From Candidatus Omnitrophota bacterium (GTDB lineage Bacteria > Omnitrophota > Gorgyraeia > Tantalellales > Tantalellaceae): DNA of 64,000 nucleotides. The stretch's first letter is position 1, and every line of letters begins with the position of its first letter. The DNA lies in the NCBI GenBank assembly GCA_028715965.1, contig JAQUQS010000004.1:61963-125962 (forward strand), given 5' to 3'. The position numbers were made by a program, and so were the translations under genes. The notes under the pieces were generated by a model that worked only from the letters and a program-made list of their open reading frames with translations, ran no database searches and was not told the DNA's origin. Below, piece after piece: positions 4,122 to 64,000 of this stretch.

Positions 4122-4162
4122 TAATATAGATACTAAAACTGGTTCTTTTAAATGGATTTTTT

Positions 4163-4297
4163 GAAAAAGGCAACCTCCGTGAAAGCGGAAGGGCGCAAAG
4201 CTATAAGAGCCTAAGACCTCAAGGGGTTACGGTAGTCAGCTGCCAAAGAGAGAAGGTATACATTGACCCATGGCTATTATAGTCATGGGTTTTTTTA
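4163..4297 (+). ncRNA. candidate c-di-GMP-I (GEMM) riboswitch aptamer (4163-4244) plus intrinsic terminator (hairpin 4267-4289, U-tract 4290-4296) in the tpsA-1 5' UTR
   Basis: AAAAAGGCAACC..UGAAAG..GGGCGCAAAGCU..GCCUAAG..GGGGUUACGGUAG..CAGCUGCC aligns block by block with the GEMM consensus and the Vc2 riboswitch (GGCAAACC / GNRA loop / GGGACGCAAAGCC / GCCUAA / GGGGUUACCGA / GCUnCC). Followed by a 10-bp hairpin CCCAUGGCUA-UUA-UAGUCAUGGG and U7. Confidence 0.5.
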
Positions 4298-4359
4298 TCC
4301 CCCGTAGCCAGATAGGATATGAGTAGATAGGCGTAGGAGGATTATTTAGGGGCAAAGAG

Positions 4360-21109: not shown

Positions 21110-22995
21110 GTCGTTGGTACGGTTAAGGGATCGGTCTCTTTGCGGCGGATCGTCAGGATATTGTTGTCCAGTAGTTCATTTGCCGAAGGGGTCCCGGAAA
21201 GCATGTCGGGAAGACCTTCACGAGGGGTCTCGGAGCGCATACTCTTTATCCTTTCCCATTCCTTGGGCAGGTTCTCCTCGAAAGTAAGGGCGAAATGGAA
21301 ACGCGGGTTCGGGGACTCAGTGGTGGCTTTGTCCGGTCCTATGGGGAACCCCCATTCCAGGCGTAAGAGCGCCTGATTGTACAGACGTATACGTAGTCCA
21401 GCTCCGATGCTGGAATAGTTGACATGTTGTCTCTCCTCATCTTTTCTGGCCGCGCGTTTTTCCCCGTAACCGTAATCCATGAAACACAGGAGGTTCACGT
21501 TGTTACGCAGGCTGTCCTGGGCGTATGGCAGTTTCCATGACTCCGGGATGAACGGGCAGGGGACGAGTAGGTCCAGATTCATTATAAAGCCGTTGTCGGC
21601 CATGTAGTCCTGGGCCGGATATCCGCGTATCGAATCGATACCACCCAGGGAAAGTTGTTCCTGCGACGCGAGTTTTTCTCCGGAGAACTGGGTCTTGATG
21701 TTCAGGGCCGCCTGTAATGAGGCCGGAAATAGTTGCCGGTGTTTTATGTCAAGGTTGAACTTGGTGAAAGTGTTCCCGGCGGTCCCGTTCCTGGAAGAAA
21801 GGGGATGTTTGCGTCTGGCCCCGAACGCGTTAAGCCCCTGGGATAGCTGGGGTGAGATATACGTTATCGCGCCGGGGTTGCGGCTTATGATGTTGCTTTT
21901 GAGCCGGGCGGTACGGAAACGATCGCGTATAAGCGTGCCTTCCTCGGTGGTGGTCACTTTGTCGTTGGAGTCCATGCCCAGCGAAATGTCCCCAAGATAT
22001 TCCGATCTCTTGTACAGGTCCTGGCTGACCGTGAAGCTGGCGCTCTGTGACCTTGACCGTATGCCATAGACAGAGAACTGTTTTCTTGGCGCGGAACGTG
22101 AGTCGGAATATCCGTAAATTATGTTCGTCCCGAAATTTGTTATGGGTACGGAGTGATACATATACATGCCGCTGAAATACTGGCCAAACGTGTATCCGGA
22201 AAGAAAGGTATCATCGACGAAGAGGGCATTATTATGTCTTACTCCGAAACCGTACCTGTCCCCGCCGGTGGAAGGAGCTCCTTCATTGTCGTATGAGAAA
22301 AACCCATGTATGGGGAAGTAAGATGTCGTGTCCAGCATCACGTCGGTAGTTCCTATTTCCTGCCCGGCGATAAGAGTGGCTTTTACGTCCCGGTCGGGAT
22401 TTTTGTTCATGAGTTGCAGGCTCCGGCTCATTTTATCATAACGCAGGACCTGTCCCGGTTTGATGTCCCAGTAGTATTTTACGCGATCGACCTGGTTGGG
22501 GTCTCGGCTTTGTATCTTAAGTTCTCCCATTTTAGCCTCGACCACCCGCAAAGTGACCACGCCGTTCTTGATGTCCTGCGGAGGGAGGAAACAGGCCGCT
22601 ATGACCCCTTTCTTCAGATACTCTTTTTCGATGTTCTTTGTTATCTCCGTGAGCTCCGCCAGGTCGGTATCCTTACCGATGGAATCAGCGAAGAGCGGAG
22701 TGAATTCGTCGGGGGGAAAAGTCTCGGTACCTTCGAGGACCACTTCTTTTAACAGGAAAGTAGGGCCTTGAGGTATGGCTTTTTCCTCTTCCTCGATCTT
22801 TTCGGGTGCCTGGGGAGGCGTTGTCGTGAGTTTTTCCTCGGCTTCCTCGCGGAATGGCCTGTCCACCTCGCGTGTGGCCATGTCTATCGTGCTTTCGCTG
22901 GGGAGAGGCTGGGAGAAACACGCCCGATACACGAGCGTGGACATTAACAATACGAAAACCACCTTTTTAATGAATGATGTGTACATATGATTCAA
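21106..22995 (-). CDS. TpsB outer-membrane transporter (ShlB/FhaC/HecB family, Omp85 superfamily)
   Basis: Signal peptide. POTRA_2-like region (FLLKEVVLEGTETFPPDEF..GKDTDLAELTEITKNIEKEYLKKGVIAACFLPPQDIKNGVVTLRVVEAKMGELKI). Hallmark loop-6 motif EQLSLGGIDSIRGYP. Beta-barrel-like C-terminal half ending ..RFHFALTF. Convergent with tpsA-2; the stop codons overlap by 4 nt. Confidence 0.85.
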   Translation of the reverse strand: MNHMYTSFIKKVVFVLLMSTLVYRACFSQPLPSESTIDMATREVDRPFREEAEEKLTTTPPQAPEKIEEEEKAIPQGPTFLLKEVVLEGTETFPPDEFTPLFADSIGKDTDLAELTEITKNIEKEYLKKGVIAACFLPPQDIKNGVVTLRVVEAKMGELKIQSRDPNQVDRVKYYWDIKPGQVLRYDKMSRSLQLMNKNPDRDVKATLIAGQEIGTTDVMLDTTSYFPIHGFFSYDNEGAPSTGGDRYGFGVRHNNALFVDDTFLSGYTFGQYFSGMYMYHSVPITNFGTNIIYGYSDSRSAPRKQFSVYGIRSRSQSASFTVSQDLYKRSEYLGDISLGMDSNDKVTTTEEGTLIRDRFRTARLKSNIISRNPGAITYISPQLSQGLNAFGARRKHPLSSRNGTAGNTFTKFNLDIKHRQLFPASLQAALNIKTQFSGEKLASQEQLSLGGIDSIRGYPAQDYMADNGFIMNLDLLVPCPFIPESWKLPYAQDSLRNNVNLLCFMDYGYGEKRAARKDEERQHVNYSSIGAGLRIRLYNQALLRLEWGFPIGPDKATTESPNPRFHFALTFEENLPKEWERIKSMRSETPREGLPDMLSGTPSANELLDNNILTIRRKETDPLTVPTT

Positions 22996-39541: not shown

Positions 39542-41119
39542 TTGTCGGCACATAACCCGTACATCCTTAATATACTCACGCCTGAAGTGATAGACAGGAC
39601 ATCACTTCTTGTGATAGGATTCGACGTGGATGGAAGGTTGCTGTACTGGAACGAAAGAGCCAGGGAAGTGACCGGTCATTCCAAGGCCGATATCCTGAAG
39701 GCGGGTATGCCATTGTTGTTCCGCTGCCTGATACCTTCGGGGAGCTTGAAGAGTATCAAGCCCACTGCCGAATCCCAGAGCATCCAACTTAAAGAAAAAG
39801 AGATCTCTATTCGCAATAGGTCGGGGGAGATACGTCATCTGCGCCTGGATCTTTATCTTGTTCGCTCCACGAGGGCTAAAGGGCGTGTGGCTGTGATACT
39901 AACTGCCGTTGATATTACCTATGCTTATCTTTTACAGAACAGCCTGAGGTCCAAGAACCACTATATACAGACCACTACGAACCGTCTTAAACGTTATCTT
40001 TCCCTGGACCCGCATACCGGGCTTTTGAATTACAGACATTTTATACATAAGTTGAGCCATTTGTTCTATGTGGGGTTCGAGAACAACGAACCGCTTTCGT
40101 TGCTGATGATAAACATAGACTACTTCAGTTCCATAAACAGTACATATGGGGTCGCGCGAGGGAACCAGATACTCAAAAAAATAGCCGAGCTTATAAAGGC
40201 GAACGTCCCGGCCGGGTTTTCCGTAGGGCGTTTTGGAGGCACGGAATTCGGAGTTCTTATGCCGGCAACCGACATAAAGAGCGCGTTCGCCATAGCGGGC
40301 AAGCTTTTCACCAAGATGACGGACCTTAATTTCAGCGACAAAAAACATGATGTTACGTTGAACTTGTCCTTGAACATGGCTATCGGGGGGCATCCTCACT
40401 GTGCTGGTGCCGGAAGCCCGGAACAGTTGTTGGGGATCGTTATGGATAAGCTCAATGACGCTAAACGGACCGGAGCTAACTCAATATTGATATGCTCACC
40501 GAACCGGGCGGTGGAACATAAAACGGATGCGATGGAGGAGTTCCAGTCCGACAATGGCGATTATAAGTATACGTTGGAATTCGTCCATGCCCTGGCGAAT
40601 ACCGTAAAGACCAAGGATCTGTATACACAGGAACATTCCATGTCCATGTCCGGCTATGCGGCATCTATCGCGGATTTCATGGGGTTGAACCAGGCAGAAA
40701 TACAGAGGATACGTTTTGGTTCGATACTTCACGATATCGGCAAGATAGGCATAGATCGCATGATATTGCTCAAACCCACAGCGCTTACCCGGGGGGAATT
40801 CGAGACGATAAAACAGCACCCCAGGATTGGCGCGGAAATAATCAGGAACGTCCGTCCGTTAAAGAACGTCGTACCCTATGTTCTGTATCATCATGAGAGG
40901 TATAATGGCAGCGGTTACCTGGAAGGATTGAGGGGCGATGAAATACCTCTTGGTGCCAGGATAATAAGCCTTGCGGATGTGTTCCAGGCTTTAATATCAA
41001 ACCGTCCGTATAGGAAGCCATTGCCGGAAGAAGAGGCGATAGGGCTTATTAAGACGTATTCCGGAAAATATTTCGATCCTAAGGTCGTGAAAGCCTTTCT
41101 TGAGGTCCACCGCGCCTGA
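39542..41119 (+). CDS. PAS - degenerate GGDEF (GGTEF) - HD-GYP c-di-GMP phosphodiesterase-type signalling protein
   Basis: TTG start. N-terminal PAS-like segment (..LLVIGFDVDGRLLYWNERAREVTGH..). GGDEF fold with A-site RFGGTEFGVL (Thr replaces D/E). C-terminal HD-GYP (..HDIGKIG..YHHERYNGSGYLEGL..). Confidence 0.75.
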   Translation: MSAHNPYILNILTPEVIDRTSLLVIGFDVDGRLLYWNERAREVTGHSKADILKAGMPLLFRCLIPSGSLKSIKPTAESQSIQLKEKEISIRNRSGEIRHLRLDLYLVRSTRAKGRVAVILTAVDITYAYLLQNSLRSKNHYIQTTTNRLKRYLSLDPHTGLLNYRHFIHKLSHLFYVGFENNEPLSLLMINIDYFSSINSTYGVARGNQILKKIAELIKANVPAGFSVGRFGGTEFGVLMPATDIKSAFAIAGKLFTKMTDLNFSDKKHDVTLNLSLNMAIGGHPHCAGAGSPEQLLGIVMDKLNDAKRTGANSILICSPNRAVEHKTDAMEEFQSDNGDYKYTLEFVHALANTVKTKDLYTQEHSMSMSGYAASIADFMGLNQAEIQRIRFGSILHDIGKIGIDRMILLKPTALTRGEFETIKQHPRIGAEIIRNVRPLKNVVPYVLYHHERYNGSGYLEGLRGDEIPLGARIISLADVFQALISNRPYRKPLPEEEAIGLIKTYSGKYFDPKVVKAFLEVHRA

Positions 41120-42560: not shown

Positions 42561-43568
42561 ATGAATCCGCATACGATCACAGACATAAAGGTCCTTGTTG
42601 TCGAGGATGACCCCACGAGTGCTAAACTTTTGCAGAGTATGCTGAGTAAATCCGTCCTTGGAATAGCCGAGATAGTAGTAACTACCACTTTGAAGGAATC
42701 CATAGAATATATCTCACGTAATATCGACACGGATATCGTCCTTTTGGACCTTAACCTGCCGGACAGTACGGGACTCGATTCAGTAAGTGACCTTAATGAC
42801 GAACACCCCGATGTGGCGATCGTTGTCATCACGGGTGCTTATGCCGAGTCCCTGGGGCTTGACGCTATTTCGAACGGGGCACAGGATTACCTGATCAAGG
42901 GTAAATATGATATGGGCATGCTCAACAAATCCATTCTTTACGCGATCGAGCGTAAGAAGGGCGAGAACGAACGCAAAAAAAGTCTGGAAGAACTGCAGCG
43001 CGTGATGGAAGGGACCATATTGGCAATGGCCACTACCGTGGAAATGAGGGACCCATATACCGCCGGCCATGAGCAGAGGGTAAGCCAGTTGGCCACGGCG
43101 ATAGCGGGAGATCTCGGGTTGTCGGAGAAACAGGTGAACGGCATAAAAATGGCGGCTATCATACATGATATAGGCAAGATACATATACCGGCTGAGATAC
43201 TGAGTAAACCGGGAAAAATAAGCAAGATAGAGTTCGACCTGATAAAGACACATGCTCAGGTCGGGTATGATATCCTCAAGAACATCGATTTCCCTTGGCC
43301 GATCGCGCAGATAGTACTGCAGCATCACGAGAGGATAGACGGATCGGGATATCCCAATGGGTTGAAAGGGGATGATATACTCCTGGAGTCGCGGATAATG
43401 GCGGTCGCCGATGTGGTCGAAGCCATGGCGTCCCATCGTCCTTACCGACCGGCCTGTGGTCTGGATAAGGCTCTTGAAGAGATATCTAATTCCAGGGGTA
43501 TTCTTTACGACCCGAACGCGGTAGACGCGTGCATACGTCTTTTCAGGGAGAGGGGATTTTCCTTCTGA
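42561..43568 (+). CDS. response regulator with HD-GYP output domain (RpfG-like c-di-GMP phosphodiesterase)
   Basis: REC domain (..VLVVEDDP..VLLDLNLPDSTG..) followed by HD-GYP (..IHDIGKIHIP..QHHERIDGSGYPNGL..). Confidence 0.85.
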   Translation: MNPHTITDIKVLVVEDDPTSAKLLQSMLSKSVLGIAEIVVTTTLKESIEYISRNIDTDIVLLDLNLPDSTGLDSVSDLNDEHPDVAIVVITGAYAESLGLDAISNGAQDYLIKGKYDMGMLNKSILYAIERKKGENERKKSLEELQRVMEGTILAMATTVEMRDPYTAGHEQRVSQLATAIAGDLGLSEKQVNGIKMAAIIHDIGKIHIPAEILSKPGKISKIEFDLIKTHAQVGYDILKNIDFPWPIAQIVLQHHERIDGSGYPNGLKGDDILLESRIMAVADVVEAMASHRPYRPACGLDKALEEISNSRGILYDPNAVDACIRLFRERGFSF

Positions 43569-49197: not shown

Positions 49198-50532
49198 ATG
49201 AATATAAGCATACGTACCAAGCTATTCGCTACCACAATATCCATATTGGTGCTGGCCGTAACGTCGACAGCTGCTATCAATATCACTAAGTTCCGGTCAA
49301 TGTACATCGAGGCTATGCTGGAAAGGGCCAGGGCCGACGCCCAGGACATACGTTCCGCCATTCTCCATGGGCTGAACTATTTCCCGTTGGACTCGTTCTC
49401 CGATATGAGATATCTCCTTAGGTCGCGGCTTAGTCCGAAGTTCAGCTATTGTTATGTGGCTAACGCCGACAGGAAGATACTGTACCATAGCGAAGGTGAT
49501 GTCGACGACGATAAGCTACCCGACATATTTACCGCGAAACTGGAGCTTTTAGGGGAGAATAACAGTATAATCGTCTCTGTTGAGGGATACTATGAGAGCG
49601 TGATCCCGATAGTGTTCAAGGAGGAAAGGGTAGGGACGATACATGTTGGCATAGAGAAGAACCTGGTGGATGGGGCGGTTATCCGCATGATAGCCCAGAC
49701 CGTGACCATACTTATTATCGCGCTCCTGGCCTCCATATTCGTGCTCTATTACCTGCTCACCAAGAACATTACAGAGCCCATACGGATGCTCCTGAAAAAG
49801 GTCACCTACATAAACTCACGATTTGATATCACCAAGCGCATAAAAGAACAGAAAGGGGACGAGCTCGCGGCGTTCGCGCGGTCTTTTGACCTCATGTCCG
49901 AGGAACTGCAGATAATATTCGAGGGTAGCATAAACGCCTTGGCCACCGCCGTTGAAAGCAGGGACCCTTACACGGCTGGTCATCAACGAAGGGTGGCAGA
50001 TCTGGCGCGTACCATCGCGAAAGAGATGGGCCTGCCGGAGAAAAAGCAGAACGAGATATATATGTCAGGCATAAGCCATGATATCGGTAAGGTCGGCGTG
50101 CCGACACGAATACTAACGAAACGGGGTAAGTTGACAGAAGAGGAGATAGAGCTCATACGCTCGCATCCACAGGTCGGATACGATATTCTCAAGGCGATCG
50201 ATTTTGACTGGCCCATCGCCAGGACGGTGCTTCAACACCACGAGCATATGGATGGTACGGGGTATCCCAACGGAGCCAATGGTGACAATATACTGTTGGA
50301 GGCCAGGATAATAACGGTCGCGGACGTGGTGGAGGCCATGGCAGCCCCGCGTCCCTACAGGGAAGGCCTGGGTATTGAAGCCGCGCTGGACGAGATATTG
50401 TTGAAGAGGGATACATGGTTCGACCCAAAGGTCGTTGACACGTGTCTCAAACTGTTCTATGAGCAGAAATATACGTTTGATTTTACCAATCTTAATATCA
50501 CGATGATAGACCCGAACCAGCTCTCCCGATAA
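49198..50532 (+). CDS. membrane-anchored sensor: periplasmic domain - TM - HAMP - HD-GYP phosphodiesterase
   Basis: TM1 at the N-terminus, a 150-aa extracytoplasmic segment, TM2 (..IAQTVTILIIALLASIFVLYYLL..), HAMP-like helices, then HD-GYP (..SHDIGKVG..QHHEHMDGTGYPNG..). Confidence 0.8.
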   Translation: MNISIRTKLFATTISILVLAVTSTAAINITKFRSMYIEAMLERARADAQDIRSAILHGLNYFPLDSFSDMRYLLRSRLSPKFSYCYVANADRKILYHSEGDVDDDKLPDIFTAKLELLGENNSIIVSVEGYYESVIPIVFKEERVGTIHVGIEKNLVDGAVIRMIAQTVTILIIALLASIFVLYYLLTKNITEPIRMLLKKVTYINSRFDITKRIKEQKGDELAAFARSFDLMSEELQIIFEGSINALATAVESRDPYTAGHQRRVADLARTIAKEMGLPEKKQNEIYMSGISHDIGKVGVPTRILTKRGKLTEEEIELIRSHPQVGYDILKAIDFDWPIARTVLQHHEHMDGTGYPNGANGDNILLEARIITVADVVEAMAAPRPYREGLGIEAALDEILLKRDTWFDPKVVDTCLKLFYEQKYTFDFTNLNITMIDPNQLSR

Positions 50533-53861: not shown

Positions 53862-54945
53862 ACATTATCGGACGTTGCAAATGGAGGGCCTCTGGGGTGT
53901 TTTTAAGGGGTTTTTGAGCGACGTTCGATAATGTGATCTGGCGCCTCTTTGCGGGACAACGTCCAATAATGCCGGAACATTATCCGACGATACCCTGCTT
54001 CGCATATCATCCGATAATATTCCCCTAAGCGCGTCTATTTTTGGTATCAGTACCGCGCTTATCGGACGTTGCAAATGGAGGGCCTCTGGGGTGTTTTTAA
54101 GGGGTTTTTGAGCGACGTTCGATAATGTGATCTGGCGCCTCTTTGCGGGACAACGTCCAATAATGCCGGAACATTATCCGACGATACCCTGCTTCGCATA
54201 TCATCCGATAATATTCCCCTAAGCGCGTCTATTTTTGGTATCAGTACCGCGCTTATCGGACGTTGCAAATGAGGGCTTTCTAAGGGTGTTTGCCTGGGTT
54301 TTGTCCCGAGTTTTTCACGTCGGATAATGTATGAATACTTCGAGACAATTCCCAACATCCAATAATGTGGGAATATTATCCGACGATACCCTGCTTCGCA
54401 TATCATCCGATAATATTCCCCTAAGCGCGTCTATTTTTGGTATCAGTACCGCGCTTATCGGACGTTGTAAATGAGGGCTTTCTAGGGGTGTTTGCCTGGG
54501 TTTTGTCCCGAGTTTCTCACGTCGGATAATGTATGAATACTTTGAGACAATTCCCAACATCCAATAATGCCGGAACATTATCCGACGATACCCTGCTTCG
54601 CGGATCATCCGATAATATTCCCCTAAGCGCGTCTATTTTTGGTATCAGTACCGCGCTTATCGGACGTTGCAAATGGAGGGCCTCTGGGGTGTTTTTAAGG
54701 GGTTTTTGAGCGACGTTCGATAATGTGATCTGGCGCCTCTTTGCGGGACAACGTCCAATAATGCCGGAACATTATCCGACGATACCCTGCTTCGCATATC
54801 ATCCGATAATATTCTCCTAAGCGCGTCTATTTTTGGTATCAGTACCGCGCTTATCGGACGTTGCAAATGGAGGGCCTCTGGGGTGTTTTTAAGGGGTTTT
54901 TGGGCGACGTTCGATAATGTGATCTGGCGCCTCTTCGCGGGACAA
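53862..54945. repeat. noncoding tandem array of 5.5 units of 194-202 bp (order A-A-B-B-A-A'), each dense in ATAATG/CATTAT-type inverted motifs
   Basis: Unit starts (TTATCGGACGTTG) at 53865, 54059, 54253, 54455, 54657 and 54851. Units share 17 bp at the left and about 95 bp at the right, with two alternative central segments. Minus-strand ORFs here are repeat artefacts. Confidence 0.85.
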
Positions 54946-55117
54946 CTCCCTTAACCGCCTTTTCTTTACTTACATTGCTTTTTGAAGGTTGATTTGAAAT
55001 AACTTAAATATGATCGCATGTACTTGGCAATTTATTGTAAATTCGTATACTTTTTATAGTACGTTATTTTATGTTGACTGATATATGTTCAGGTTTTCAG
55101 ATAAAAGGAGTTGTCAT

Positions 55118-55429
55118 ATGAGGAGCGCACTCGGAAAAACGTGCATGGCGGTTATTTTTGCGTGTCTTTTCATCTCGGCCGCTATTACCGTACGCGCGGA
55201 AGTCGTGGCCGACGGTGAAAAAAGCCAAAGATCGGCCCTGAAGTTCGGAGATGCGGCCGGTTCGGAATTTTCATTTGGGGACGGTATGGACTGGGACGTG
55301 CCCGCTGGTGATGCCACCGATGGCTTTGCCCTTTTCGGCCAAGCCGATCTACGTCCCTATAAAGGTAAGGACACTACTAACCCCCTACCCGCCGACTGCG
55401 TTGTGCAGGAAGAAGTACAGAACGAGTGA
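55118..55429 (+). CDS. hypothetical small secreted protein
   Basis: AAGGAG RBS 6 nt before ATG. Signal peptide (..AVIFACLFISAAITVRA). G/D/A-rich mature part. Confidence 0.3.
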   Translation: MRSALGKTCMAVIFACLFISAAITVRAEVVADGEKSQRSALKFGDAAGSEFSFGDGMDWDVPAGDATDGFALFGQADLRPYKGKDTTNPLPADCVVQEEVQNE

Positions 55430-55472: not shown

Positions 55473-58400
55473 TTAGAACGCTGTATCGGCTTTAAGGTCA
55501 GCGAATAAAGCGTTGTCGATATCCTCGTCGGTCGTGTCCTGCCCCTGCCCGCCGGCATCAAGTTTTAATGTTATTGCGCCTTTCTTTGTCATTTCCCGCA
55601 GACGTTTCAAACCTTCATCGGTGAACGCCGCCTGGAACCCCCTGTATGTTATCGCGAGTGCCAGTACCTTGCCGAAAATATGGCCCTTTTCCGCCAGTAC
55701 GAAATTGTCGCTTATTTTGGCGATCTCCGTGATGAGTGCCGTGGCGGAATCGAAATCTTCGCGCAACGCGACGCCGGTGATCACGATCTTTTTGGCGCCA
55801 AGGGACCTGGCGAGTGTTTCCGCCTCGTAAAGTATGGTCGTAAGGTCCTCTATGGTGGAAACCTCTTTTACCATCTGGTACGAGCCGTTATCCTTCAGGC
55901 GTTTCATGCCTTTCTCGTCACTTTTCGCTGCCGTCTCGGTAGCTATACATATGTTTACGGTATCCGGGGACTTAAGTTTGTTCCAGCCTCCGGCGTTAGC
56001 GTTCACCGCTGCGTTTGCCTGGGTTCCGTAATCCATTATTTGCGGGGCCGTGGTAATAACCGTTCCATCTCCTGCCATCTCGCCGCCATTGCCCGTGATA
56101 TCAACGGCGTTGAATGTGGCCGGGGCCATTAACCCGCCCTGTTCTCCGGAAATGCGTCCGTTCCGTGACATGATGATCCGTGTAGCCAGTGTGGCTGTTA
56201 GCGGAAGCTCGCTCGCGGCCGGGTTTCTTAATCCTTCCGCGGTGAGGTCTCTCAGATATTTGAGCTGGTCGGCACTGGACCGTTCCGCGATACCGCGTAC
56301 AGCCCGGGCCATTGATTCCATATCAGTTGCTGAATCATCCTCATCCGGCGTTTCTTCTAGGAGCATATCACCGGCCGCGGCATCTATGATCTCGGCCGCG
56401 GTATAGGCCTCTGCCAGCGCGCTTTCGGTCATATTCCCGTTCGCGTCACATTTACTGAAGATCGCGACAAGCATGTCGACAGCTTTATCCCGTTCGCCGT
56501 TCTCCAGTGCCTTCCGCAGTTCGGGTAATATCCCGCCGATAGTTGCACTTGGATCCAGGCTCTTGGCCTTATGTGTATCCGGAGCCAGGCCGGGGGTCGA
56601 ACTGTCCCGGGTCATGCCGTCATCCGTGGTGCCCTGCTCTTCCGGAACGGAAGATGGCGTATCCGCTGAGGTTATGTCTTCTACTCCTGCCAGCCTGAAG
56701 GCATATTTGCCCTCCCCTACCCTGCTGCCGGCGATGTTGATACGGGCGATGGTGAGCCTTTTTCCCATTACCGTTACGATGATCTCATTTGTCTTTGTGC
56801 CAAAGCCCGGTATCTGGCGGTCGATATCGGCAGTAAGCGCTTTTACGACTTTATTTTCAAATACGCAGAATATGTTGAACGCGCCGGTCGCCTGGTCGAG
56901 TTTTTCCACCACGAATATCAGGTTCCCGTCCGCGTCATGGTCGGCGTAGTACCGGGTGACACGCGCGATCCTGCCGTCTGAGCCCATTTCATGTATCCAT
57001 GAGGTGCCGGTGCTTGTTATGTCTATTCCGCGATATGCCGCTTCAGCTATTTTTACGGCTATATCCGCGATATGTGATGCCTTATATCCGTCGATGCCCG
57101 CTTCAGCGTATGGTTCGGAGTGGCCGTCAAAAATGACATTATCCAGGTCATCTACGGTCACTATATCAGATGCTCCGAAATCGACCATTGAGCCCCTGAA
57201 ACTGATGGTGGCGGATGTGGATATCCTTATGGCCTCAGTCCCGCTTGCCATGAAAGCATAGCGCACTTCATACGGCAATACTCCCCCGAAATTACTGGAT
57301 GCGACATCTCGCAGGAATGTATATTCCTCTGGATCGATCGTGCCGATATTGGTAAGTTCCGCCAGGACATCCATAAGATCCGCACTTTTTATCATGACGC
57401 TTTGAGTCTGGCTGGAATGGTCTATGCGTATCCGGTATACTGCCGCATCATTGACGTTATCGACGCGATCTATTGAATATAAGTGCCCGCCGTTCTCTCT
57501 CAGGTCGATCTCTATGCTCTGCCCAATGGAGACCTGTCCTTTAAGGCCCATTTCGATGCGGGTGTTCAGTTCTCCCATGTTCCAATCGTTCCCGGTACCG
57601 TCCGGTCTTTCCATTTTCAGTGAGGATATGCGGTTTTCCGTGATCTCCGCCCGGAACCGGTCCATATTGCCGTAGGCATCATAGATGCTCGCGTTCACCG
57701 TTGCGGTCCTCAGTGCCGGAATACCTCGGGCTATGGCAGCTACGCGGGAAATGAACGTTTCAAGGTCTCCCGCGGTGGATCCCAGGACCATATCTTCCAC
57801 GAGCCGCGCGGCCCCGCCCGGGATAAGTTCCCGGTTCCCGGTCGTGTTCAGGACAAGTGTCATGGAGCGTTCGTTGAAGTTGTCGGTCAAGGTAAGGGAT
57901 ATCTTACCGTAAGCTAGTTCGCTGAGATCTGCTTCTATGGCTACACCGTCTATGTCGAACTGCATGGTACCTGAAGTCAGTCCATTCTCGGTCATGGCGC
58001 GGTTTATCGCGGGAAGTACGTCGTTAAGTACGCCCAGCCCCTGCTCTCCCGTGATGGAGACGCCTTCGATCAGTGCGTTAAGTGTGTTCTGGTCAAAGGT
58101 CTTGCCGGCCGCTATCTTAACGGAGACATCCGCCCCCGAAGATGTGGAACGTATGTTCGCCTGGCCGGTCACGAGGTCCAGGCTTATATCGGTCCCGTCT
58201 ATCCGCATGCTGATATAAGTGAGGGACGACAGGCTGTTGAACCCCAGCTCATTGGTTCCTATCCCTGCGGTGGTTTTCCCGGAGGCCGCTTTTTGTGAAA
58301 GCCCGTTCGCGGCATCCCCGAAGTGCATCGCGTTGTTCTCCTGCGCGTTATCAAGGTAGTCGTCTATGGTCACCGTATCCGCATTCTCATCTATATAGCC

Positions 58401-61400
58401 TTCCGCGGGTACGTTCATTTTTATAGCTCTTTCCGTGAGCGGGTTGGATATCGTTACTGCGGATCCTCCTTCGCCCAGGTCGAGTTCCAGTATCCGGTCG
58501 TCAGAGACGGTCGATCTGACAGATCTTGTATTTATGTTATCGCTTATCGCCGTTGAACGCAATTGACGTACCATGCCGTTGAACGCATTGACGGTGGTAA
58601 CCACTCCTTTCTCTGTAGTGAGGTCCAGGTCGAGGCCTGTCGTGCCGGCTGTTTTAGCGATAGCCTGGACCGCGGAGATGATCGCCGGGATATTGCTGCC
58701 CGTGCCGGCTGTCATCTGTAAACTTGGACCGTGGGCCTCAAGTGAGATGCTGCCGGAAACAAGTGAAGCATATACTCCGGGAGCGGAGATGATGCTGTTA
58801 AATGCCTGCCCGAACAGTTTTTCGGTGCCGAGTATCTTTCCGACCGTCTTCGCGCCATCGATATCCGCTATGATGTCTTCGTTGGCCAATGACCTTATGA
58901 ACTCGGCCGCGTCTTCGGTCGCCAGGGCTGTTTCCTGTTTTGTATGGTCGGTCCGCCCGGAGGCTTCATGTGCGACCTCATGCGAGATGACCATGTCGCG
59001 TAGTATGCCCTCTATTCTTTGCGCGCCGGTGGTGTCTATGCCCAGTCCTTCCGCGATCCTTCCCGCAAGGTGTTTTATGGCCTGTGTGTTGAGCGCTATT
59101 ATGCCGTCTTTTTCATTGTTACCGCCGAGATCCGTCCCCAGTCCTTCCGAGCGGGAGGTCGACACCACAGTCAGGCCTTTTCTCAGTCCGTCACCATTGG
59201 TCCGCCGCATTGAGGCGTTAGCGACCGAGTTGGCTATTTCCTGCCGTGTTGCCGTGCTGCCGAAGTGGCTATCAACATACACTGGCGCGGAGGAACCGTC
59301 CTCTTGTCGGCCGGTCTCGGGTTGCACAGCCCAACGGGACCCGCCGGTATCAGTGGTCTCACCACGGATATCCGCTGCCCTGGACATCATCGCCGAGGTG
59401 TGTCGCGGAGCCCTTGCTTCAGATACCCCTCTGCCGGTGGTGTGCTGGAAACTTAGGGATTCTCCGCTTTCCAGAATTATCTCTCTGGGTGCGCTCGAGG
59501 TCCCGGAGGCCGCCCCGACAAGGTCATCCAGGTCAATATCGTTTATCTGGTCTACCAGGTCCTTAACGTGTTTGTCCAAAGTATCTATGCCCTCATCCCC
59601 GGGAAGGAGTGTTCGCAGGCTGTCAACCTTGGCGCTTACATCGGCCGGCGCCCCGGTTTCCGTGACGAGCGGGGTGTCAGAGGTCTTTCTCCCGAGTATC
59701 ATCTGGGCTTCCCGCATACGTCCCGTTTGTCCTGTACCGTTGAACGCATCGATGACGCTGTTGGCCTGCATGGCGTCGATATTCGAATTCAGGTTCTCCA
59801 TATGTGAACGGAAAAGCCCTGCCGCGGGATTCTCGAAATCCATTGAGGTCCCAAATCCGCCGTTATCGCGGATGGCCTTCGTCATTTCCGCGCGTTCTGC
59901 ATTCCGTATCCGCATGTCCGAAACGTCCACATAATGGTGTATGTTCCCTTCTCCCCTGCCGGGCGCGTTTATCCTCTGTTCCTGTTGTTTCATCGCGCTG
60001 GAGGAGCCTATTTCGGTGGTAAAGAACTCTACGCCCTGGAAACCTCCGGTGTTCCCGAATTCTATAAAGTCCTGTGCCTTGCCATTGATCCATTTTTTGG
60101 AGAATGTATTGGCGCCAGTGCCGAGTTTTGATACAAGGTGGATAGAGTTACCGAACATTTCCCTGACCTGACCCTGTTCTGCCGGGCTGGCCATGCGTAC
60201 CGCGTCCCTTACTGCCTCAAAGGAGTTAGGGTTCTCATATACCAGTATGTTGACCGTTCTGCCGGCGTTGGATGTGGTATATTTTGTCACGCCCTTAATA
60301 GGAACGGTTCTGCCGTTCACTTTTAGGGTAACCGTCTCGCCTTTCAGTTCCGCCTCAGGGGCCTTTCCCATGAGGCCCTTAAGGGCCGCTTCCGCACTGG
60401 CCATGGTGCCGAACGCGCCCACTATAAGGCGTATTCCGCCGTTCTTGGCATTTTCCGCCTGTGACCCCATTACAGCTTTACTGAAGGCACCGATGAGCTC
60501 AGCGGAACCCTCAAAGAACATTGTTTTCGCTGAAGTGTGCCAATCGCTCTGGCCCAGGTCTATGATACTTGCACCCATCGCGTTAAGGGCTATACGGCAG
60601 CCCTCGATCGTGCCTGTGAAACCTGTCATTATGTCCTGTCCGGTCGCTGAGTGCCGGTTGATATAGGCGATCGCCTCACTTATGCTTACCCCTCTCTGTG
60701 ATGAGGTAATAAGGGCGTTTATGGCGTTGGAGGCCTCGATCCCGGCTACGTTCTTCTCGTTATACCGGCCGCCGCTTGTTGCTCTCATCTTGGCGCTCTC
60801 GACCTGGCCTCTGTGGTGTATGGCCAAGGCCTTCCAGGGGTCGCCATACTGGGTATTGACCATATCCTCGCCTGTCATCCTGTCATGCATAGTATATGAG
60901 CTCATCGTGCCGGTCCAGAGGTCCAGGTTCACGGAGAACCCGCCTTTCTGCTGTAACTTACAGGTTAGAGGATCGGCCGCACGGTTTACATAGGTATTAA
61001 AGAGCATGCGTGCGTTGTTGACGCCTCCCAGGGAGGCAAGTTCGGCCTGAGAGAGTGAAGATAGCATGCTTTCCACTACGGCCTTCGCGGCTTCGTATGT
61101 GAGATGGCGGTTGTTCGTGGTAGCGTCGAAATCAAAGTATTTTTGCCATCCTTTGGCGCCGCCGTTCCATCGGGAAAGTATAGCGTCCCTGCCGGCGAGC
61201 GCGCCTTTGTTCAGCGCTTCATAGAACCGTTTTTCCCCGCCTTTTGCCTGCGCGAACATGTTGCGTGCTACGTTAAATGTAAGGTTCGTGGTCTGCATGA
61301 CCGCTTCCACTTCGTCGATGCTGAACTGGTGGAACCCTTCGAGTTTTTCCGGGGAATTGAAATAAATTTCCAGCAGGGTCTTTGATGCCATTATATTTAC

Positions 61401-64000
61401 ACCCTTGCCGATGTCATTAGTGTTGTTCTTGCCTATGGTGCGTACGTTCGCCTGGCCGAAATATGAGTTAAGAGCGCTGAGGAGCTGGTTCCTGGAAGCT
61501 TTTCCCTGGTCGAAATCCTTGCTTACATTGCTTTCGATGTCGAGTACTATAAGGAGCTTTAGGTCTCCCTTAGCTACCTTAGTTGGAGCGAACTCCGTCA
61601 TATATCCAGCGAAAGCCAGTTGGAACGCGACATTGACGAGTGTTTTTCCTCCTCCGCATCCGAGCAGGATGATCGTCGGTCTTGCGGCAGATCCGGCGTT
61701 TGCGTTCCCGATAGCCCCGATCTGGGCGGCAAGAACGGATCTGTATTGCAGTATATCCGTCGATCCGGCCGTGTACTCGTTCTTAAAATTGGTCCCGGGT
61801 CTTGAAGCCTCGGAGAATACCCGTGCGAGAGCTTCTACGGATGTTATCAGGGCGTCCCGGCCAGTCCCCGAGGATAGGTCTCTTAATGTTGACAATACGG
61901 ATCTCTTTATGTCCTTTTCCGATATGCCGCGTTCCCTCATGGCGCGCATCGTTTCCGGGATGGTCCCGGTAACGACGGTCTTGATCTCCCTGAGTACCGC
62001 TTCCCTGAACGTCTCTGAGCCGATCTTCCCGAACTCCGCCTTCAGATTGCCTTTGGCGTCATACATGTTGCGCATTACCGTCTGTATCGCTCCGCCAAAA
62101 CGGTCGGCGAAAGTGGATATTTGGGCCTGTCTGCGTGCGGCTATCTCCGTTATGCGTTGCGAGGAAAGTTTCTCTCCGCTGCTTTTCAGGTCATGAATAG
62201 CGTAGTCTACTCCGATCGAGGCGGACAATGTCTGGAATTCGTTTACGCCGGACGCCCTCAACTGGTTAGCCAGCGCTTTTTCCACGGCGACCTGTGTGGT
62301 CCTTACACCTTTACCTCCCTTACCCGGCAATACTATGGTGCCGGTAAGTCGGTTCAGTAAACGTTCTCCCCTGGAGGATGTTATTTCATTGCGGTTGACG
62401 ATGTTCCCGCGTACGATACTTGTAATCGCAAGCGCTTTAGCCGTTTTAGCGGCCTCTAAAGCCGCCTTTTGCGTTTCCGGTCCGCCTTCTGAACCTTGCT
62501 TTGATCTCTTATAGGCTTCATACATGGCGCTTTTTATCTTTTGCTTGTTCTCTTGGGTGTTCAGGAGCTCGCTAAGGACTTCCGCTGTTCTTCCCTTGCT
62601 GAGGGAGCTGTTGACGGCTTTCTGTACCTGCCGGGCAACTATCCCGAACACTCCGGAAATGGAGACATACGCGGGTATGGCGAAAAGAAGAGCCCAGCTG
62701 AAAAATGTGATCGAACCCTGTGACATGCCGAGTCCCGCACTTGCGAAATTCTGCCGGCCGTACATGTCTTCTGCGGCAAATTGCTGGAGTACGGTCTGGA
62801 TGCCCATGACCTTGAGGACCATATCAAGGTCGCCTATACCTGTCATATGAACGAGCCTGCTTAGTAGAGATGCTTTCCCGGCTGTTGCCGCGGGTCCGAA
62901 CAGACCCACGAACGGTTTCATCATGGCGCCTGTCTTGAACCCTTCTATCGCTGACGCTATCATTTCGTGCATGCCCCGAGAACTGAATATCCTGTGCCCA
63001 CCCTGTGTGTACAGGCCACCATGGGTCAACATGCCGCCGATAGCGTTAAAATACACGCTTACCCTGGTCCATTCTATCGCTCCCCTGGTCATCTGTGAAC
63101 TTATGCTTTTCAACCCCTGCAAAAGCCTCGTGTTTGCGCCATTGCCCCCGTTAAGGAAGGCCCCGGCGTTCTTTGATGCCTGGTCGAGTTTCGATATTCC
63201 CATGGGGGATGTCGCGTACATGGCCATGAATCCCCAGAGAGCACCCTGGAAAAGGCTTGCTCCAAGATCACGACTGAAGGATGTTATGTCCTTCATCCCG
63301 ATATTGCCGGCCACGAGATCCCCGGAGACAAAACCGGAGGCGGTTATCGCCATGCCAGCGGCGAAATACGCCGCGTATAAAGCACGGGCTCCCCATGTTA
63401 CCTTTGAGGCGGCCTGCAGTCCTTTGAACCATGTTCCCCTGCCCATTCCGAACGCGAGAGCCACGCCTATGGCCGCGCCTTTTATAAGGTCTCCGGCAAG
63501 GCCTCTAAGGGAAAACCCACCCGTCCAGGTATCCGCCATGAACAGCGTGCCGAAAAATCCGCCTATGCTGTCGATGTCCCCGTTCATGAAGTTCGAAACT
63601 ACCCTGCGTGCCTGACTGGCCCCGGCATAAACAAACGCTCCACCGGTGATGGCGTATACTATCCTTTGCATGGCAGTAAGGCTTTGTATCCATGCGCCTA
63701 TTTGCGGTATCTTCGCGGCGATCAGGGCCAGACCTGCCGCGAATCCGGCACCCTGGATAAATCCTTTGAGAGCCAATAGCCCTACCTCGTTCCAGACAGT
63801 GGATCCGTCACGGTTGGTAAAGAAATCGTCAAATACACCGTTCCCGTTACGCCAGTTGTTATGCATTCGTGCCGCGAAATATACGCCTACGCTTATAGCG
63901 GCCATTATTACTCCGGCTACAAGTAGTTTAGCGCTGAGCGCCAGAAGGGCCAGAGAACTCCCGCCGGAGAAGATAGCTCCTCCAATGGCTACTACGGCTA
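55473..64000 (-). CDS. giant protein of more than 2842 aa (N-terminus beyond the window edge): Gly-rich polytopic membrane N-terminal region, P-loop-like GCGGGKT, HExxH (HEVAHE), otherwise unassignable
   Basis: Single minus-strand frame open from 64000 to the stop at 55473. The first 450 aa are hydrophobic with many G/A-rich helices. Isolated motifs ILLGCGGGKT..LLIVLDIE and MVISHEVAHE. No homolog recognised by eye. Confidence 0.6.
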   Translation of the reverse strand, partial: AVVAIGGAIFSGGSSLALLALSAKLLVAGVIMAAISVGVYFAARMHNNWRNGNGVFDDFFTNRDGSTVWNEVGLLALKGFIQGAGFAAGLALIAAKIPQIGAWIQSLTAMQRIVYAITGGAFVYAGASQARRVVSNFMNGDIDSIGGFFGTLFMADTWTGGFSLRGLAGDLIKGAAIGVALAFGMGRGTWFKGLQAASKVTWGARALYAAYFAAGMAITASGFVSGDLVAGNIGMKDITSFSRDLGASLFQGALWGFMAMYATSPMGISKLDQASKNAGAFLNGGNGANTRLLQGLKSISSQMTRGAIEWTRVSVYFNAIGGMLTHGGLYTQGGHRIFSSRGMHEMIASAIEGFKTGAMMKPFVGLFGPAATAGKASLLSRLVHMTGIGDLDMVLKVMGIQTVLQQFAAEDMYGRQNFASAGLGMSQGSITFFSWALLFAIPAYVSISGVFGIVARQVQKAVNSSLSKGRTAEVLSELLNTQENKQKIKSAMYEAYKRSKQGSEGGPETQKAALEAAKTAKALAITSIVRGNIVNRNEITSSRGERLLNRLTGTIVLPGKGGKGVRTTQVAVEKALANQLRASGVNEFQTLSASIGVDYAIHDLKSSGEKLSSQRITEIAARRQAQISTFADRFGGAIQTVMRNMYDAKGNLKAEFGKIGSETFREAVLREIKTVVTGTIPETMRAMRERGISEKDIKRSVLSTLRDLSSGTGRDALITSVEALARVFSEASRPGTNFKNEYTAGSTDILQYRSVLAAQIGAIGNANAGSAARPTIILLGCGGGKTLVNVAFQLAFAGYMTEFAPTKVAKGDLKLLIVLDIESNVSKDFDQGKASRNQLLSALNSYFGQANVRTIGKNNTNDIGKGVNIMASKTLLEIYFNSPEKLEGFHQFSIDEVEAVMQTTNLTFNVARNMFAQAKGGEKRFYEALNKGALAGRDAILSRWNGGAKGWQKYFDFDATTNNRHLTYEAAKAVVESMLSSLSQAELASLGGVNNARMLFNTYVNRAADPLTCKLQQKGGFSVNLDLWTGTMSSYTMHDRMTGEDMVNTQYGDPWKALAIHHRGQVESAKMRATSGGRYNEKNVAGIEASNAINALITSSQRGVSISEAIAYINRHSATGQDIMTGFTGTIEGCRIALNAMGASIIDLGQSDWHTSAKTMFFEGSAELIGAFSKAVMGSQAENAKNGGIRLIVGAFGTMASAEAALKGLMGKAPEAELKGETVTLKVNGRTVPIKGVTKYTTSNAGRTVNILVYENPNSFEAVRDAVRMASPAEQGQVREMFGNSIHLVSKLGTGANTFSKKWINGKAQDFIEFGNTGGFQGVEFFTTEIGSSSAMKQQEQRINAPGRGEGNIHHYVDVSDMRIRNAERAEMTKAIRDNGGFGTSMDFENPAAGLFRSHMENLNSNIDAMQANSVIDAFNGTGQTGRMREAQMILGRKTSDTPLVTETGAPADVSAKVDSLRTLLPGDEGIDTLDKHVKDLVDQINDIDLDDLVGAASGTSSAPREIILESGESLSFQHTTGRGVSEARAPRHTSAMMSRAADIRGETTDTGGSRWAVQPETGRQEDGSSAPVYVDSHFGSTATRQEIANSVANASMRRTNGDGLRKGLTVVSTSRSEGLGTDLGGNNEKDGIIALNTQAIKHLAGRIAEGLGIDTTGAQRIEGILRDMVISHEVAHEASGRTDHTKQETALATEDAAEFIRSLANEDIIADIDGAKTVGKILGTEKLFGQAFNSIISAPGVYASLVSGSISLEAHGPSLQMTAGTGSNIPAIISAVQAIAKTAGTTGLDLDLTTEKGVVTTVNAFNGMVRQLRSTAISDNINTRSVRSTVSDDRILELDLGEGGSAVTISNPLTERAIKMNVPAEGYIDENADTVTIDDYLDNAQENNAMHFGDAANGLSQKAASGKTTAGIGTNELGFNSLSSLTYISMRIDGTDISLDLVTGQANIRSTSSGADVSVKIAAGKTFDQNTLNALIEGVSITGEQGLGVLNDVLPAINRAMTENGLTSGTMQFDIDGVAIEADLSELAYGKISLTLTDNFNERSMTLVLNTTGNRELIPGGAARLVEDMVLGSTAGDLETFISRVAAIARGIPALRTATVNASIYDAYGNMDRFRAEITENRISSLKMERPDGTGNDWNMGELNTRIEMGLKGQVSIGQSIEIDLRENGGHLYSIDRVDNVNDAAVYRIRIDHSSQTQSVMIKSADLMDVLAELTNIGTIDPEEYTFLRDVASSNFGGVLPYEVRYAFMASGTEAIRISTSATISFRGSMVDFGASDIVTVDDLDNVIFDGHSEPYAEAGIDGYKASHIADIAVKIAEAAYRGIDITSTGTSWIHEMGSDGRIARVTRYYADHDADGNLIFVVEKLDQATGAFNIFCVFENKVVKALTADIDRQIPGFGTKTNEIIVTVMGKRLTIARINIAGSRVGEGKYAFRLAGVEDITSADTPSSVPEEQGTTDDGMTRDSSTPGLAPDTHKAKSLDPSATIGGILPELRKALENGERDKAVDMLVAIFSKCDANGNMTESALAEAYTAAEIIDAAAGDMLLEETPDEDDSATDMESMARAVRGIAERSSADQLKYLRDLTAEGLRNPAASELPLTATLATRIIMSRNGRISGEQGGLMAPATFNAVDITGNGGEMAGDGTVITTAPQIMDYGTQANAAVNANAGGWNKLKSPDTVNICIATETAAKSDEKGMKRLKDNGSYQMVKEVSTIEDLTTILYEAETLARSLGAKKIVITGVALREDFDSATALITEIAKISDNFVLAEKGHIFGKVLALAITYRGFQAAFTDEGLKRLREMTKKGAITLKLDAGGQGQDTTDEDIDNALFADLKADTAF

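Follow-up and report, generated by a model that had tools for sequence, protein, structure and literature searches.

A very rare, unannotated family of large Omnitrophota proteins joining a glycine-rich membrane domain to a putative SecA-like ATPase motor

A large inner-membrane protein of an Omnitrophota bacterium is probably encoded by the giant open reading frame at the edge of the analysed window (the whole 64-kb stretch of DNA under study), which covers its C-terminal 2,841 residues or more. The part conserved in its family is best read as a module in which a membrane domain of multiple Gly/Ala-rich helices is joined through a basic linker to an SF2 ATPase of about 650 residues that is predicted to be built like SecA. 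On balance, the protein seems to be a very divergent member of the Omnitrophota "transmembrane region plus SecA-like domain" theme, and would act as a membrane-tethered motor for polypeptide translocation. In published giant proteins of this phylum, divergent SecA_DEAD and SecA_PP_bind domains accompany numerous transmembrane (TM) helices, and the scaffold and wing domains are absent; those termed "Archaeovorin" and "Dockerin-type" carry a TM-anchored SecA_DEAD/SecA_PP_bind module, and self-export has been proposed for Omnitrophota giants by the authors (West-Roberts et al. 2023, bioRxiv 10.1101/2023.11.21.568195). A cluster of 20 proteins sharing a PF07517 architecture has also been described (Nielsen & Lui 2026, bioRxiv 10.64898/2026.06.07.730766). 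The initial annotation regarded the protein as unclassifiable, a view that is not supported, since its P-loop belongs to a complete SF2 motor, predicted to be SecA-like, in an arrangement that matches the published architecture of Omnitrophota giants.

The frame (55473..64000, minus strand) is open at the window edge and extends over 2,841 sense codons, from 63998 to 55476, with no internal stop before the TAA at 55473-55475; the listing of the ORF caller covers 55473-63905 only, since it begins at the first in-frame ATG. GC3 of the frame (0.615, compared to 0.607 for carB) and its synonymous codon usage (r = 0.86 with eight housekeeping genes of the window) are those of the host, which marks the 8.5-kb frame as a native gene and not as one open by chance. 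The initial description as a giant, membrane-anchored, multi-domain protein is correct. The protein contains no internal repeats and is unrelated to the two TpsA giants of the window. The N-terminus likely lies beyond the window edge. The ATG at 63905 is preceded by a GGAG at a distance of 6-9 nt, and another frame runs open from the window edge as far as a TAA at about 63929. An argument against this ATG as the start is that two hydrophobic helices precede the sequence QNWGN in the related protein P0008, and NNWRNG in the giant protein alike. Met1 of another relative, P0001, was considered as support for this start and dropped, because P0001 is partial at both ends. The assignment to Omnitrophota, initially a guess, was right: the adjoining aconitase is 68-74% identical to proteins of Omnitrophota MAGs, and most relatives of the giant protein are from this phylum as well. 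In 80 genomes compared through the adjacent aconitase gene, no homologue of the giant protein was found nearby.

Six relatives were detected in an exhaustive HMMER scan of 1.84 billion representative sequences, with matches confined in all six to residues ~750-1450. All are large proteins annotated as "hypothetical"; most stem from MAGs of Omnitrophota (e.g. P0001, P0003, P0007 and P0008) and one from Chitinivibrionales, and they measure 3,967 to 6,804 aa where more complete. This is a very rare, unannotated family, with seven proteins among approximately 15 billion. Word-indexed searches of 5.8 billion proteins with the whole protein, the core alignment and the C-terminal third gave no match, a weak negative given that the same method missed relatives found later by exhaustive HMMER; the N-terminal 1,000 aa, used as query against GTDB genomes and JGI metagenomes, also retrieved no relative. 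P0001 aligns with residues 44-1415 of the giant protein (E = 1.6e-123), so that membrane domain, linker and core are co-conserved. In full-length P0008 (6,804 aa), the module is preceded by beta-rich, YD-repeat-like and additional TM regions. Among three relatives for which downstream context is available, two adjoin a giant gene: the gene of P0002 is followed immediately, in the same orientation, by that of a 7,807-aa giant bearing PF07517 and PF01043, and the gene of P0004 immediately by that of a 9,992-aa giant. SecA_DEAD was absent from the retrieved 3,274 aa of the 7,807-aa protein, and no SecA profile match was obtained in P0001-P0003. Such adjacency is not seen at the present locus, where the window holds no second giant gene as a neighbour. 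A conserved acidic C-terminal tail ending in an aromatic residue was also considered as a family feature and rejected, the similarity between the tails of the relatives not being significant.

Residues 1-455 (62634..63998, minus strand) constitute the Gly/Ala-rich polytopic membrane domain, as judged from composition, hydropathy and homology with P0001 and P0005, the latter matching residues 185-452 (E = 7e-9). This domain contains 16% Gly and 16% Ala, and its Kyte-Doolittle profile rises above 1.4 in seven peaks. Past residue 455 this level is not reached again, and the initial division of the protein into membrane and soluble regions therefore holds. Family motifs of the domain include NW(R/G)N at about residue 48, W..V...FN..GG at about 310, G..(M/L)(G/K)P...LFG at about 357 and SWAxLF..P at 434. 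The AF2 model of the domain is all-helical, but with a pLDDT of only 39. The last TM helix is followed by a basic linker (residues 456-749; 61752..62633, minus strand) that can be aligned with P0001, and in which residues 456-560 include 19 K+R against 9 D+E. A basic stretch in this position suggests the cytoplasmic side. Taken with the lack of later TM segments, it leads us to infer that the motor keeps to a single side of the membrane, for which the cytoplasm, where ATP is, would be the simplest choice.

The predicted SF2-type, SecA-like motor core covers residues ~750-1425 (59724..61751, minus strand), of which about 650 aa are conserved. Its order is a first RecA-like domain, an insertion of ~230 aa, a second RecA-like domain and a conserved helix with the pattern N..ID.RQ..E, which is a single long helix (residues ~1391-1425) beyond which nothing is alignable in the relatives. 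The core alignment shows motifs I, II, III, V and VI to be conserved or invariant among relatives and arranged as in SF2 proteins. Motif I or Walker A, GCGGGKT (residues 780-786; 61641..61661, minus strand), is conserved in the family as CGxGKT and lies opposite SecA TGEGKT in hhalign. The P-loop noticed initially is functionally meaningful. Motif II or Walker B is DEVE (residues 895-898; 61305..61316, minus strand), with the family pattern DE[VAF]E; it is placed by hhalign opposite SecA DEVDSILIDEARTPL and is followed by a conserved RLT (NLT in the giant protein). The "hydrophobic-DIE" stretch LIVLDIES at residue 816, also singled out in the initial annotation, is conserved but is not the Walker B motif, which is IDEVE at 894-898; on the profile-profile path, LIVLD falls opposite the SecA strand VHVVTVNDYLA. 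Between motifs II and III lies the insertion of about 200-230 aa (residues ~905-1110; 60669..61286, minus strand), at the position of the SecA preprotein cross-linking domain and with AF2 pLDDT values of 70-93. It carries the conserved patterns GG...A..L..NY.NR and YGDP.KALA, and hhalign pairs its sG..M.NTkYGDP with SecA TGR.M.GRRWSDG. Motif III, GFTGT (residues 1126-1130; 60609..60623, minus strand), in which G1126, G1129 and T1130 are invariant, lies opposite SecA GMTGT. The motif V-like sequence IHLVSKLGTGAN (residues 1286-1297; 60108..60143, minus strand; invariant H1287, T1294, G1295 and N1297) is aligned by hhalign with SecA VTIATNMAGRGTD, and the motif VI-like sequence TTEIGSSSAMKQQEQRINAPGR (residues 1326-1348; 59955..60023, minus strand; invariant T1327, S1334, Q1338, R1342, N1344 and G1347) with a 21-residue SecA stretch. 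R1342 is a candidate arginine finger. No helical scaffold with two-helix finger, wing or C-terminal domain of SecA was recognisable.

A likeness of this core to SecA is suggested at the level of predicted structure. The AF2 model, built from seven sequences, is of moderate confidence (pLDDT 66, pTM 0.54). Its Foldseek comparison with the PDB returned SecA and SecA2 at all of ranks 1-29 (E 2.9e-13 to 3.4e-5), with ~700 aligned columns, low TM scores of 0.33-0.40 and 9-14% identity in the structural alignments. XPB, MDA5, RapA and DinG came next (E ≥ 3.4e-5, TM ~0.25). The alignment of the core with nine SecA/SecA2 motors in hhalign is collinear over 525 columns, with all motifs in SecA register, and is not statistically significant (P = 0.16, score 22.1): column-shuffled controls scored 16.5 ± 2.3 with a maximum of 22.3, which puts the real score about 2.4 SD above their mean and matched by one of 40 shuffles. 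HMM searches of core against SecA in both directions and hhalign against a single SecA were likewise not significant, BLASTP against E. coli SecA gave nothing in register, and neither Pfam PF07517 (SecA_DEAD), PF01043 (SecA_PP_bind) and PF07516 (SecA_SW) nor NCBIfam SecA/SecA2 matched at E ≤ 1-10. Searches of Pfam, PHROGs, NCBIfam and PADLOC with the whole protein and with tiles gave no match, and among PDB sequences, queried with the entire protein, with its core and with the profile of the family, the one match was a marginal hit of that profile to motif I of XPB/Rad25 (PCGAGKT; E = 0.03). The initial verdict that nothing else is recognisable is accordingly correct for sequence profiles and incorrect for structure prediction, in which the core is SecA-like.

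The core could also be a generic SF2 helicase or translocase of the XPB, DEAH or Ski2 kind, tethered to the membrane and acting on DNA or RNA, for instance to take up or process nucleic acids there or to serve in defence. We consider both this reading and the roles that it implies unlikely. In Foldseek, SecA/SecA2 proteins (E = 3e-13, TM 0.37-0.40) fill the 29 top ranks, whereas helicases appear at E ≥ 3.4e-5, with E-values for XPB/Rad25, DEAH/RHA and Ski2/Hel308 that fall eight orders of magnitude short of those for SecA. These helicases are devoid of a membrane anchor and of a domain of ~230 aa between motifs II and III, an insertion that is a hallmark of SecA. Moreover, profile searches found no nucleic-acid-binding accessory, nuclease or methylase domain in the giant protein, and a translocase agrees better with the fusion to a polytopic membrane domain, as well as with the SecA-like domains known from giant membrane proteins across the phylum.

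In Foldseek, structures of SecA and SecA2 (e.g. PDB 1tf2, 3jv2, 5eul, 6sxh, 4uaq) come closest to the predicted fold of the core, and they share with it the succession of motifs I, II, III, V and VI and a large insertion between II and III. Unlike soluble, peripheral SecA, the motor is here covalently fused behind a polytopic membrane domain; its motif I has Cys for Thr (CGxGKT versus TGEGKT), a scaffold, two-helix finger, wing or zinc-binding tail is not recognisable, and some 1,400 orphan residues follow the core. The resemblance to published Omnitrophota giants lies in architecture and predicted structure: TM helices beside a SecA-like motor with two RecA domains and an insertion at the PPXD position in the same phylum, no recognisable scaffold or wing, extreme divergence and a mostly unannotated sequence. 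The SecA-like core begins ~300 residues downstream of the TM region in the giant protein, and one family member (P0002) adjoins a bona fide PF07517-bearing giant of 7.8 kaa. In contrast to the published proteins, the SecA-like domain is below Pfam detection by PF07517 or PF01043, and enzyme, dockerin, TSP3 and C39 domains are missing. The visible length is at least 2,841 aa with the ORF open at the edge, compared to >10,000-30,000 aa. The ORFs annotated in the 64-kb window include no type II secretion or carbohydrate-import genes, which are frequent but not obligatory neighbours of the published giants.

Downstream of the core, residues 1426-2841 (55476..59723, minus strand) form an acidic, TM-free orphan region in which no relative or domain was detected. 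These C-terminal ~1,400 residues are, as far as sequence comparison can tell, lineage-specific. They include HEVAH (residues 1673-1677; 58968..58982, minus strand), an isolated HExxH that is not conserved in the family and that the initial annotation took for a zincin-type motif. This opens a further reading, in which the core is a degenerate, catalytically inactive relic that acts just as a scaffold inside a giant surface or envelope protein, and function resides in the C-terminal half, possibly as a minimal zincin at residue 1673. Extreme divergence from all SecA and SF2 profiles speaks for it, as does the helix-like context MVISHEVAHEASG of the HExxH, with GIIALN ~40 residues before it, a combination that we take to be loosely reminiscent of minimal zincins. 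Peptidase domains are also known to occur in Omnitrophota giants (bioRxiv 10.1101/2023.11.21.568195). This reading nevertheless appears rather improbable. The lysine of GKT, the DE of motif II, the GT of motif III and the T, S, Q and R of motif VI are kept at a core identity among relatives of 24-33%, and such conservation of catalytic residues despite low identity argues for ATPase activity under selection. The zincin proposal is not supported either: HExxH is absent from all eight relatives examined, neither Pfam nor NCBIfam gave a peptidase profile match around HEVAH at E ≤ 10, and at least one HExxH is expected by chance in 2.4% of shuffles of a protein of this composition. The motif is most likely fortuitous.

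Gly-rich hydrophobic helices also occur in tape-measure and VirB6-type proteins. Such helices, together with size and an acidic C-terminal tail, are all that would favour a role as secreted effector or polymorphic toxin, as tape-measure protein of a phage or as conjugative protein of the VirB6/TraG type, possibilities raised initially that we now hold to be very improbable. None of PHROGs, Pfam, PADLOC and NCBIfam supports them. The window is chromosomal and rich in housekeeping genes (carAB, purF, pyrG, guaA, purL, icd, acn, recN), the 64 kb contain no phage, T4SS/conjugation, T6SS or toxin-immunity genes, and no viral or plasmid relatives are found among the six homologues. The downstream ORF is convergent and signal-peptide-bearing, and for this reason it is not an immunity-type partner. 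Also against these readings, the C-terminal tails of the relatives show no significant similarity.

As a membrane-tethered translocation motor, the protein may function as follows. The membrane domain would anchor the motor at the inner membrane, on the cytoplasmic side, and in doing so could stand in for the missing scaffold and wing domains of SecA. ATP would be bound and hydrolysed between the two RecA domains, and the inserted, clamp-like domain would grip an unfolded polypeptide, to be threaded through a channel provided either by SecYEG or by the membrane domain of the protein itself. Likely cargo would be the extracytoplasmic parts of very large proteins, be it the motor protein itself or a different giant. 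SecA2 is a motor dedicated to surface proteins of very large size, and the process would be analogous to the export of very large adhesins by the dedicated SecA2 accessory system. The "envelope-spanning machine" of the initial annotation can be retained in the sense of such a motor, and not in its broader form. It is tempting to speculate further that the module is a self-contained, Sec-independent "auto-translocase" whose Gly-rich domain forms the channel and whose attached SecA-like motor drives export of giant proteins, with upstream segments of the same protein or a neighbouring giant as possible cargo. This extension seems rather improbable; if true, it would represent a new type of bacterial export machine for polypeptides too large for the ordinary pathway.

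SecA-like motors as divergent as this one are missed by profile-based annotation, and surveys that count "Pfam-dark" giants probably underestimate the spread of the TM plus SecA-like module. Embedded SecA-like domains are the only mechanistic clue so far proposed as to how proteins of tens of thousands of residues are made, inserted and exported in Omnitrophota. The present family conserves just the membrane domain and the SecA-like motor, and so presents the module separated from enzymatic cargo. At ~1,400 residues, this module is small enough for expression, for assays of ATPase activity and translocation, and for structure determination, and therefore offers a practical entry point to the self-export hypothesis.

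The minus-strand ORF at 55473-63998 of the window (Q, with residues numbered from the window edge) comprises 2,841 sense codons from 63998 to a TAA at 55473-55475 and is free of stops up to the window edge; the coordinates 55473-63905 of the ORF listing start at the first in-frame ATG only. Q is a native gene and not an artefact, as its GC3 is close to that of carB (0.615 versus 0.607) and its synonymous codon usage follows that of eight housekeeping genes of the window (r = 0.86); no internal repeats were found in it. A GGAG lies 6-9 nt ahead of the ATG at 63905, and a different frame closes at approx. 63929. Homology to P0008, a relative with two helices ahead of a QNWGN motif, favours continuation of the N-terminus past the window edge.

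The window represents bacterial chromosome (carA/carB, purF, pyrG, guaA, purL/purQ, icd, malic enzyme, aconitase, recN, Fe-ADH) and encodes several HD-GYP/GGDEF signalling proteins. Three HD-GYP (HD_5) proteins within 11 kb of the plus strand (39542-41119, 42561-43568 and 49198-50532), with PAS-GGDEF-HD-GYP, REC-HD-GYP and sCache-HD-GYP architectures, suggest a dense capacity for c-di-GMP turnover. Both other giant ORFs encode ordinary two-partner-secretion exoproteins of the TpsA/FHA type, and show no relationship to Q. Arranged in tandem on the plus strand (4360-12675, 2,771 aa, with TPS domain, Glug and C-terminal FecR; 13016-21109, 2,697 aa, with TPS domain), they are 87% identical over the first ∼575 residues and diverge beyond, and the gene for their partner ShlB/TpsB transporter (21106-22995, minus strand) is convergent and overlaps the 3′ end of the second. 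The aconitase gene, whose product is 68-74% identical to those of Omnitrophota MAGs, ends 1.7 kb from the stop of Q; relatives of Q were found near aconitase in none of 80 aconitase-anchored loci. Between it and a small ORF lies a tandem array (53865-54946; ∼194-bp period, 5.5 copies, 88% matches) in which two alternating unit variants produce a 396-bp period, and at which gene orientation and GC skew flip. It lacks an Rfam match and contains 18 copies of TTATCSGAY (both strands counted), versus none in the remaining 63 kb. The small ORF (55118-55429, plus strand, 103 aa), with a good Shine-Dalgarno sequence (AAAGGAG), a signal-peptide-like N-terminus (MRSALGKTCMAVIFACLFISAAITVRA) and no NCBIfam match, is convergent with Q and 44 nt from its stop, with no intrinsic terminator detected in between.

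Searches of Pfam, PHROGs, NCBIfam and PADLOC with the whole of Q and with tiles gave no meaningful match, even at E≤10, so that earlier readings of Q as a toxin, tape-measure or VirB6 protein are left without support and appear very improbable. PDB sequence searches and GTDB and JGI contig scans for relatives gave no match either, nor did a word-indexed tool applied three times to 5.8 billion proteins. An exhaustive phmmer scan of 1.84 billion cluster representatives, with residues 700-1899 as the query, on the other hand, yielded six relatives (E 1.9e-81 to 3.7e-13). The word-indexed negatives are uninformative for long, compositionally ordinary queries, since P0001 (E = 1.9e-81), and indeed all six relatives, are cluster representatives in the same collection and were missed.

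All six relatives are annotated as hypothetical proteins; four derive from Omnitrophota MAGs or JGI metagenomes, one from a Chitinivibrionales MAG (P0005, 2,252 aa, partial), and one is a fragment (P0006, 404 aa). P0001 (2,162 aa), whose gene fills its 6.5-kb contig, is partial at both ends, and P0004 (2,524 aa) is N-terminally partial. P0002 (3,791 aa) is the same gene as P0007 (3,967 aa), which has 176 extra N-terminal residues, and P0003 (3,257 aa), truncated by a contig end, is likewise the same gene as P0008 from another assembly (6,804 aa; 100% identity over 3,257 aa), whose extra N-terminal half features beta-rich, YD-repeat-like segments and an additional TM cluster. The six phmmer alignments cover residues ∼750-1450 of Q only. 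BLASTP aligned Q 44-1415 with P0001 12-1359 (28% identity, E = 1.6e-123) and Q 185-452 with P0005 672-963 (E = 7e-9), and on these alignments the conserved module consists of membrane domain, linker and core; Q beyond residue ∼1450 is lineage-specific.

The initial annotation described a Gly-rich membrane part, a GCGGGKT, a hydrophobic-DIE stretch and an HExxH, and composition, hydropathy and motif positions agree with it. Residues 1-455 contain 16% Gly and 16% Ala and show seven Kyte-Doolittle peaks above 1.4, with none after residue 455; a structure model of this domain is all-helical and too poor to interpret (pLDDT 39). The juxtamembrane linker is basic (19 K+R versus 9 D+E in residues 456-560). 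Residues 1426-2841 are acidic, TM-free and without relatives detected by sequence searches. Here lies the HEVAH (residues 1673-1677), previously taken for a zincin-type motif, which is probably fortuitous because it is absent from all eight relatives, has a chance expectation of 2.4%, and lacks a profile match even at E≤10.

GCGGGKT (residues 780-786), by contrast, is present as described and yet not isolated: it is motif I (CGxGKT) of a complete SF2-type motor in A1, the seven-sequence alignment of the core. It is followed by LhVhTD..xN at 816 (LIVLDIES in Q), DAxTL..hY at 870, and motif II, hDE[VAF]E[AS]V...RLT.G, at 894 (IDEVE, 894-898). An insertion of ∼230 residues after motif II, with conserved GG...A..L..NY.NR and YGDP.KALA, precedes SS..GVSI.EA..YVN and motif III, GFxGT (1126; G, G and T invariant), a motif V-like FG..IH.h.KL.TGxN (1282-1297; F, H, T, G and N invariant), a motif VI-like T.....SS...Q...R.N..G (1327-1347; T, S, Q, R, N and G invariant), and a conserved helix, N..ID.RQ..E (∼1412-1425). 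We take these motifs to resemble TGEGKT, VHVVTVNDYLA, DEVDSILIDEARTPL, DEHTGRxMxGRRWSDG, LAGMTGTA, TNMAGRGTDI and one further motif of SecA. We hold with high confidence that the core is an SF2 ATPase motor, its nature as a P-loop motor being secure. That Q is instead an inactive scaffold, with a zincin elsewhere in the protein, is unlikely, as exactly the catalytic residues are conserved.

The profile tests failed to place the core among canonical SecA proteins. BLASTP against authentic E. coli SecA was not significant and out of register, hhalign of A1 against a single SecA sequence and HMM searches between family and SecA in both directions gave no match, and the sole match of the A1 profile to PDB sequences was motif I of XPB/Rad25 (E = 0.03). 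Against a profile of nine SecA, SecA2 and SecA-like motors (E. coli and megaplasmid records), hhalign scored 22.1 (P = 0.16), a value that 1 of 40 column-shuffled controls equalled (16.5±2.3, maximum 22.3); the maximum-accuracy path was collinear over 525 columns and paired each core motif with its proposed SecA counterpart. The AlphaFold2 model of the core built from A1 is moderately confident (mean pLDDT 66, pTM 0.54; 336 residues at pLDDT≥70, insertion included). Foldseek against the PDB ranked SecA or SecA2 of B. subtilis, C. difficile, M. tuberculosis, T. maritima, E. coli and T. thermophilus at all of positions 1-29 (E 2.9e-13 to 3.4e-5, probability 1.00, ∼700 columns, TM 0.33-0.40), with the best non-SecA structures (XPB, MDA5, RapA, DinG) starting at E = 3.4e-5 (TM ∼0.25). 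By this modelled fold, the position of the insertion and the motif register, a SecA-like core is well supported, not proven.

Further SecA-type motors were noted on plasmids. One is embedded in a hypothetical protein of 2,947 aa encoded on Legionella geestiana plasmid NZ_CP041715 (13.8 kb; CDS 453-9296), where the SecA-like region matches residues 98-602 of E. coli SecA at 25% identity; large proteins that enclose a motor of this type occur outside the Omnitrophota as well. C-terminally truncated SecA-like genes (SecA residues ∼20-650) occur on Pontibrevibacter plasmid NZ_CP049813 and in two other matches, one labelled “DEAD/DEAH box helicase” between PqqD-family chaperone and RND adaptor genes, others under features annotated “prepilin peptidase”.

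Full-length Omnitrophota giant proteins have numerous TM regions, and most carry divergent SecA_DEAD and SecA preprotein-binding domains without scaffold and wing; the adjacent TM regions were proposed as membrane anchor, and self-export as role (West-Roberts et al., bioRxiv 10.1101/2023.11.21.568195). Nielsen & Lui report a PF07517 architecture cluster of 20 proteins, and no domain match at all for 15% of proteins of at least 10 kaa (bioRxiv 10.64898/2026.06.07.730766). Q shares architecture and phylum with the published giants, although PF07517 fails to detect its motor, which has diverged too far. The context of the relatives agrees with the giant-protein theme, since P0002 and P0004 lie directly upstream, on the same strand, of much larger giants of 7,807 aa (L083 12091-21914; gap 177 nt; TPR, SecA_DEAD PF07517, SecA_PP_bind PF01043) and 9,992 aa (L085 7850-17576; gap 274 nt), respectively. 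Both neighbours run off their contigs, and neither has a family-core match in its first ∼3,270 aa. Downstream of P0003/P0008 are a Y1 transposase, Lnt and a PKS.

We therefore lean, with moderate confidence, towards Q as a SecA-like, membrane-tethered translocation motor. The motor would lie on the cytoplasmic side, with the membrane domain as its tether and as a substitute for the scaffold and wing of SecA, which are missing here. The clamp-like insertion and ATP turnover between the RecA domains would jointly move unfolded polypeptide through SecYEG or the helices of Q itself. The cargo may be extracytoplasmic parts of very large proteins, Q's own or another's, any specific cargo being a more tentative proposal than the motor. 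The nearest functional analogy is SecA2, which serves very large adhesins as their dedicated motor. A self-contained channel-plus-motor export machine seems improbable. As the combination of TM anchor and SecA-like domain in Omnitrophota giants is already published, the Q family does not open a new category; its novelty is that of a distinct and extremely divergent family, invisible to Pfam and very rare (seven members in ∼15 billion proteins), whose only conserved part is the module of TM anchor and SecA-like motor.
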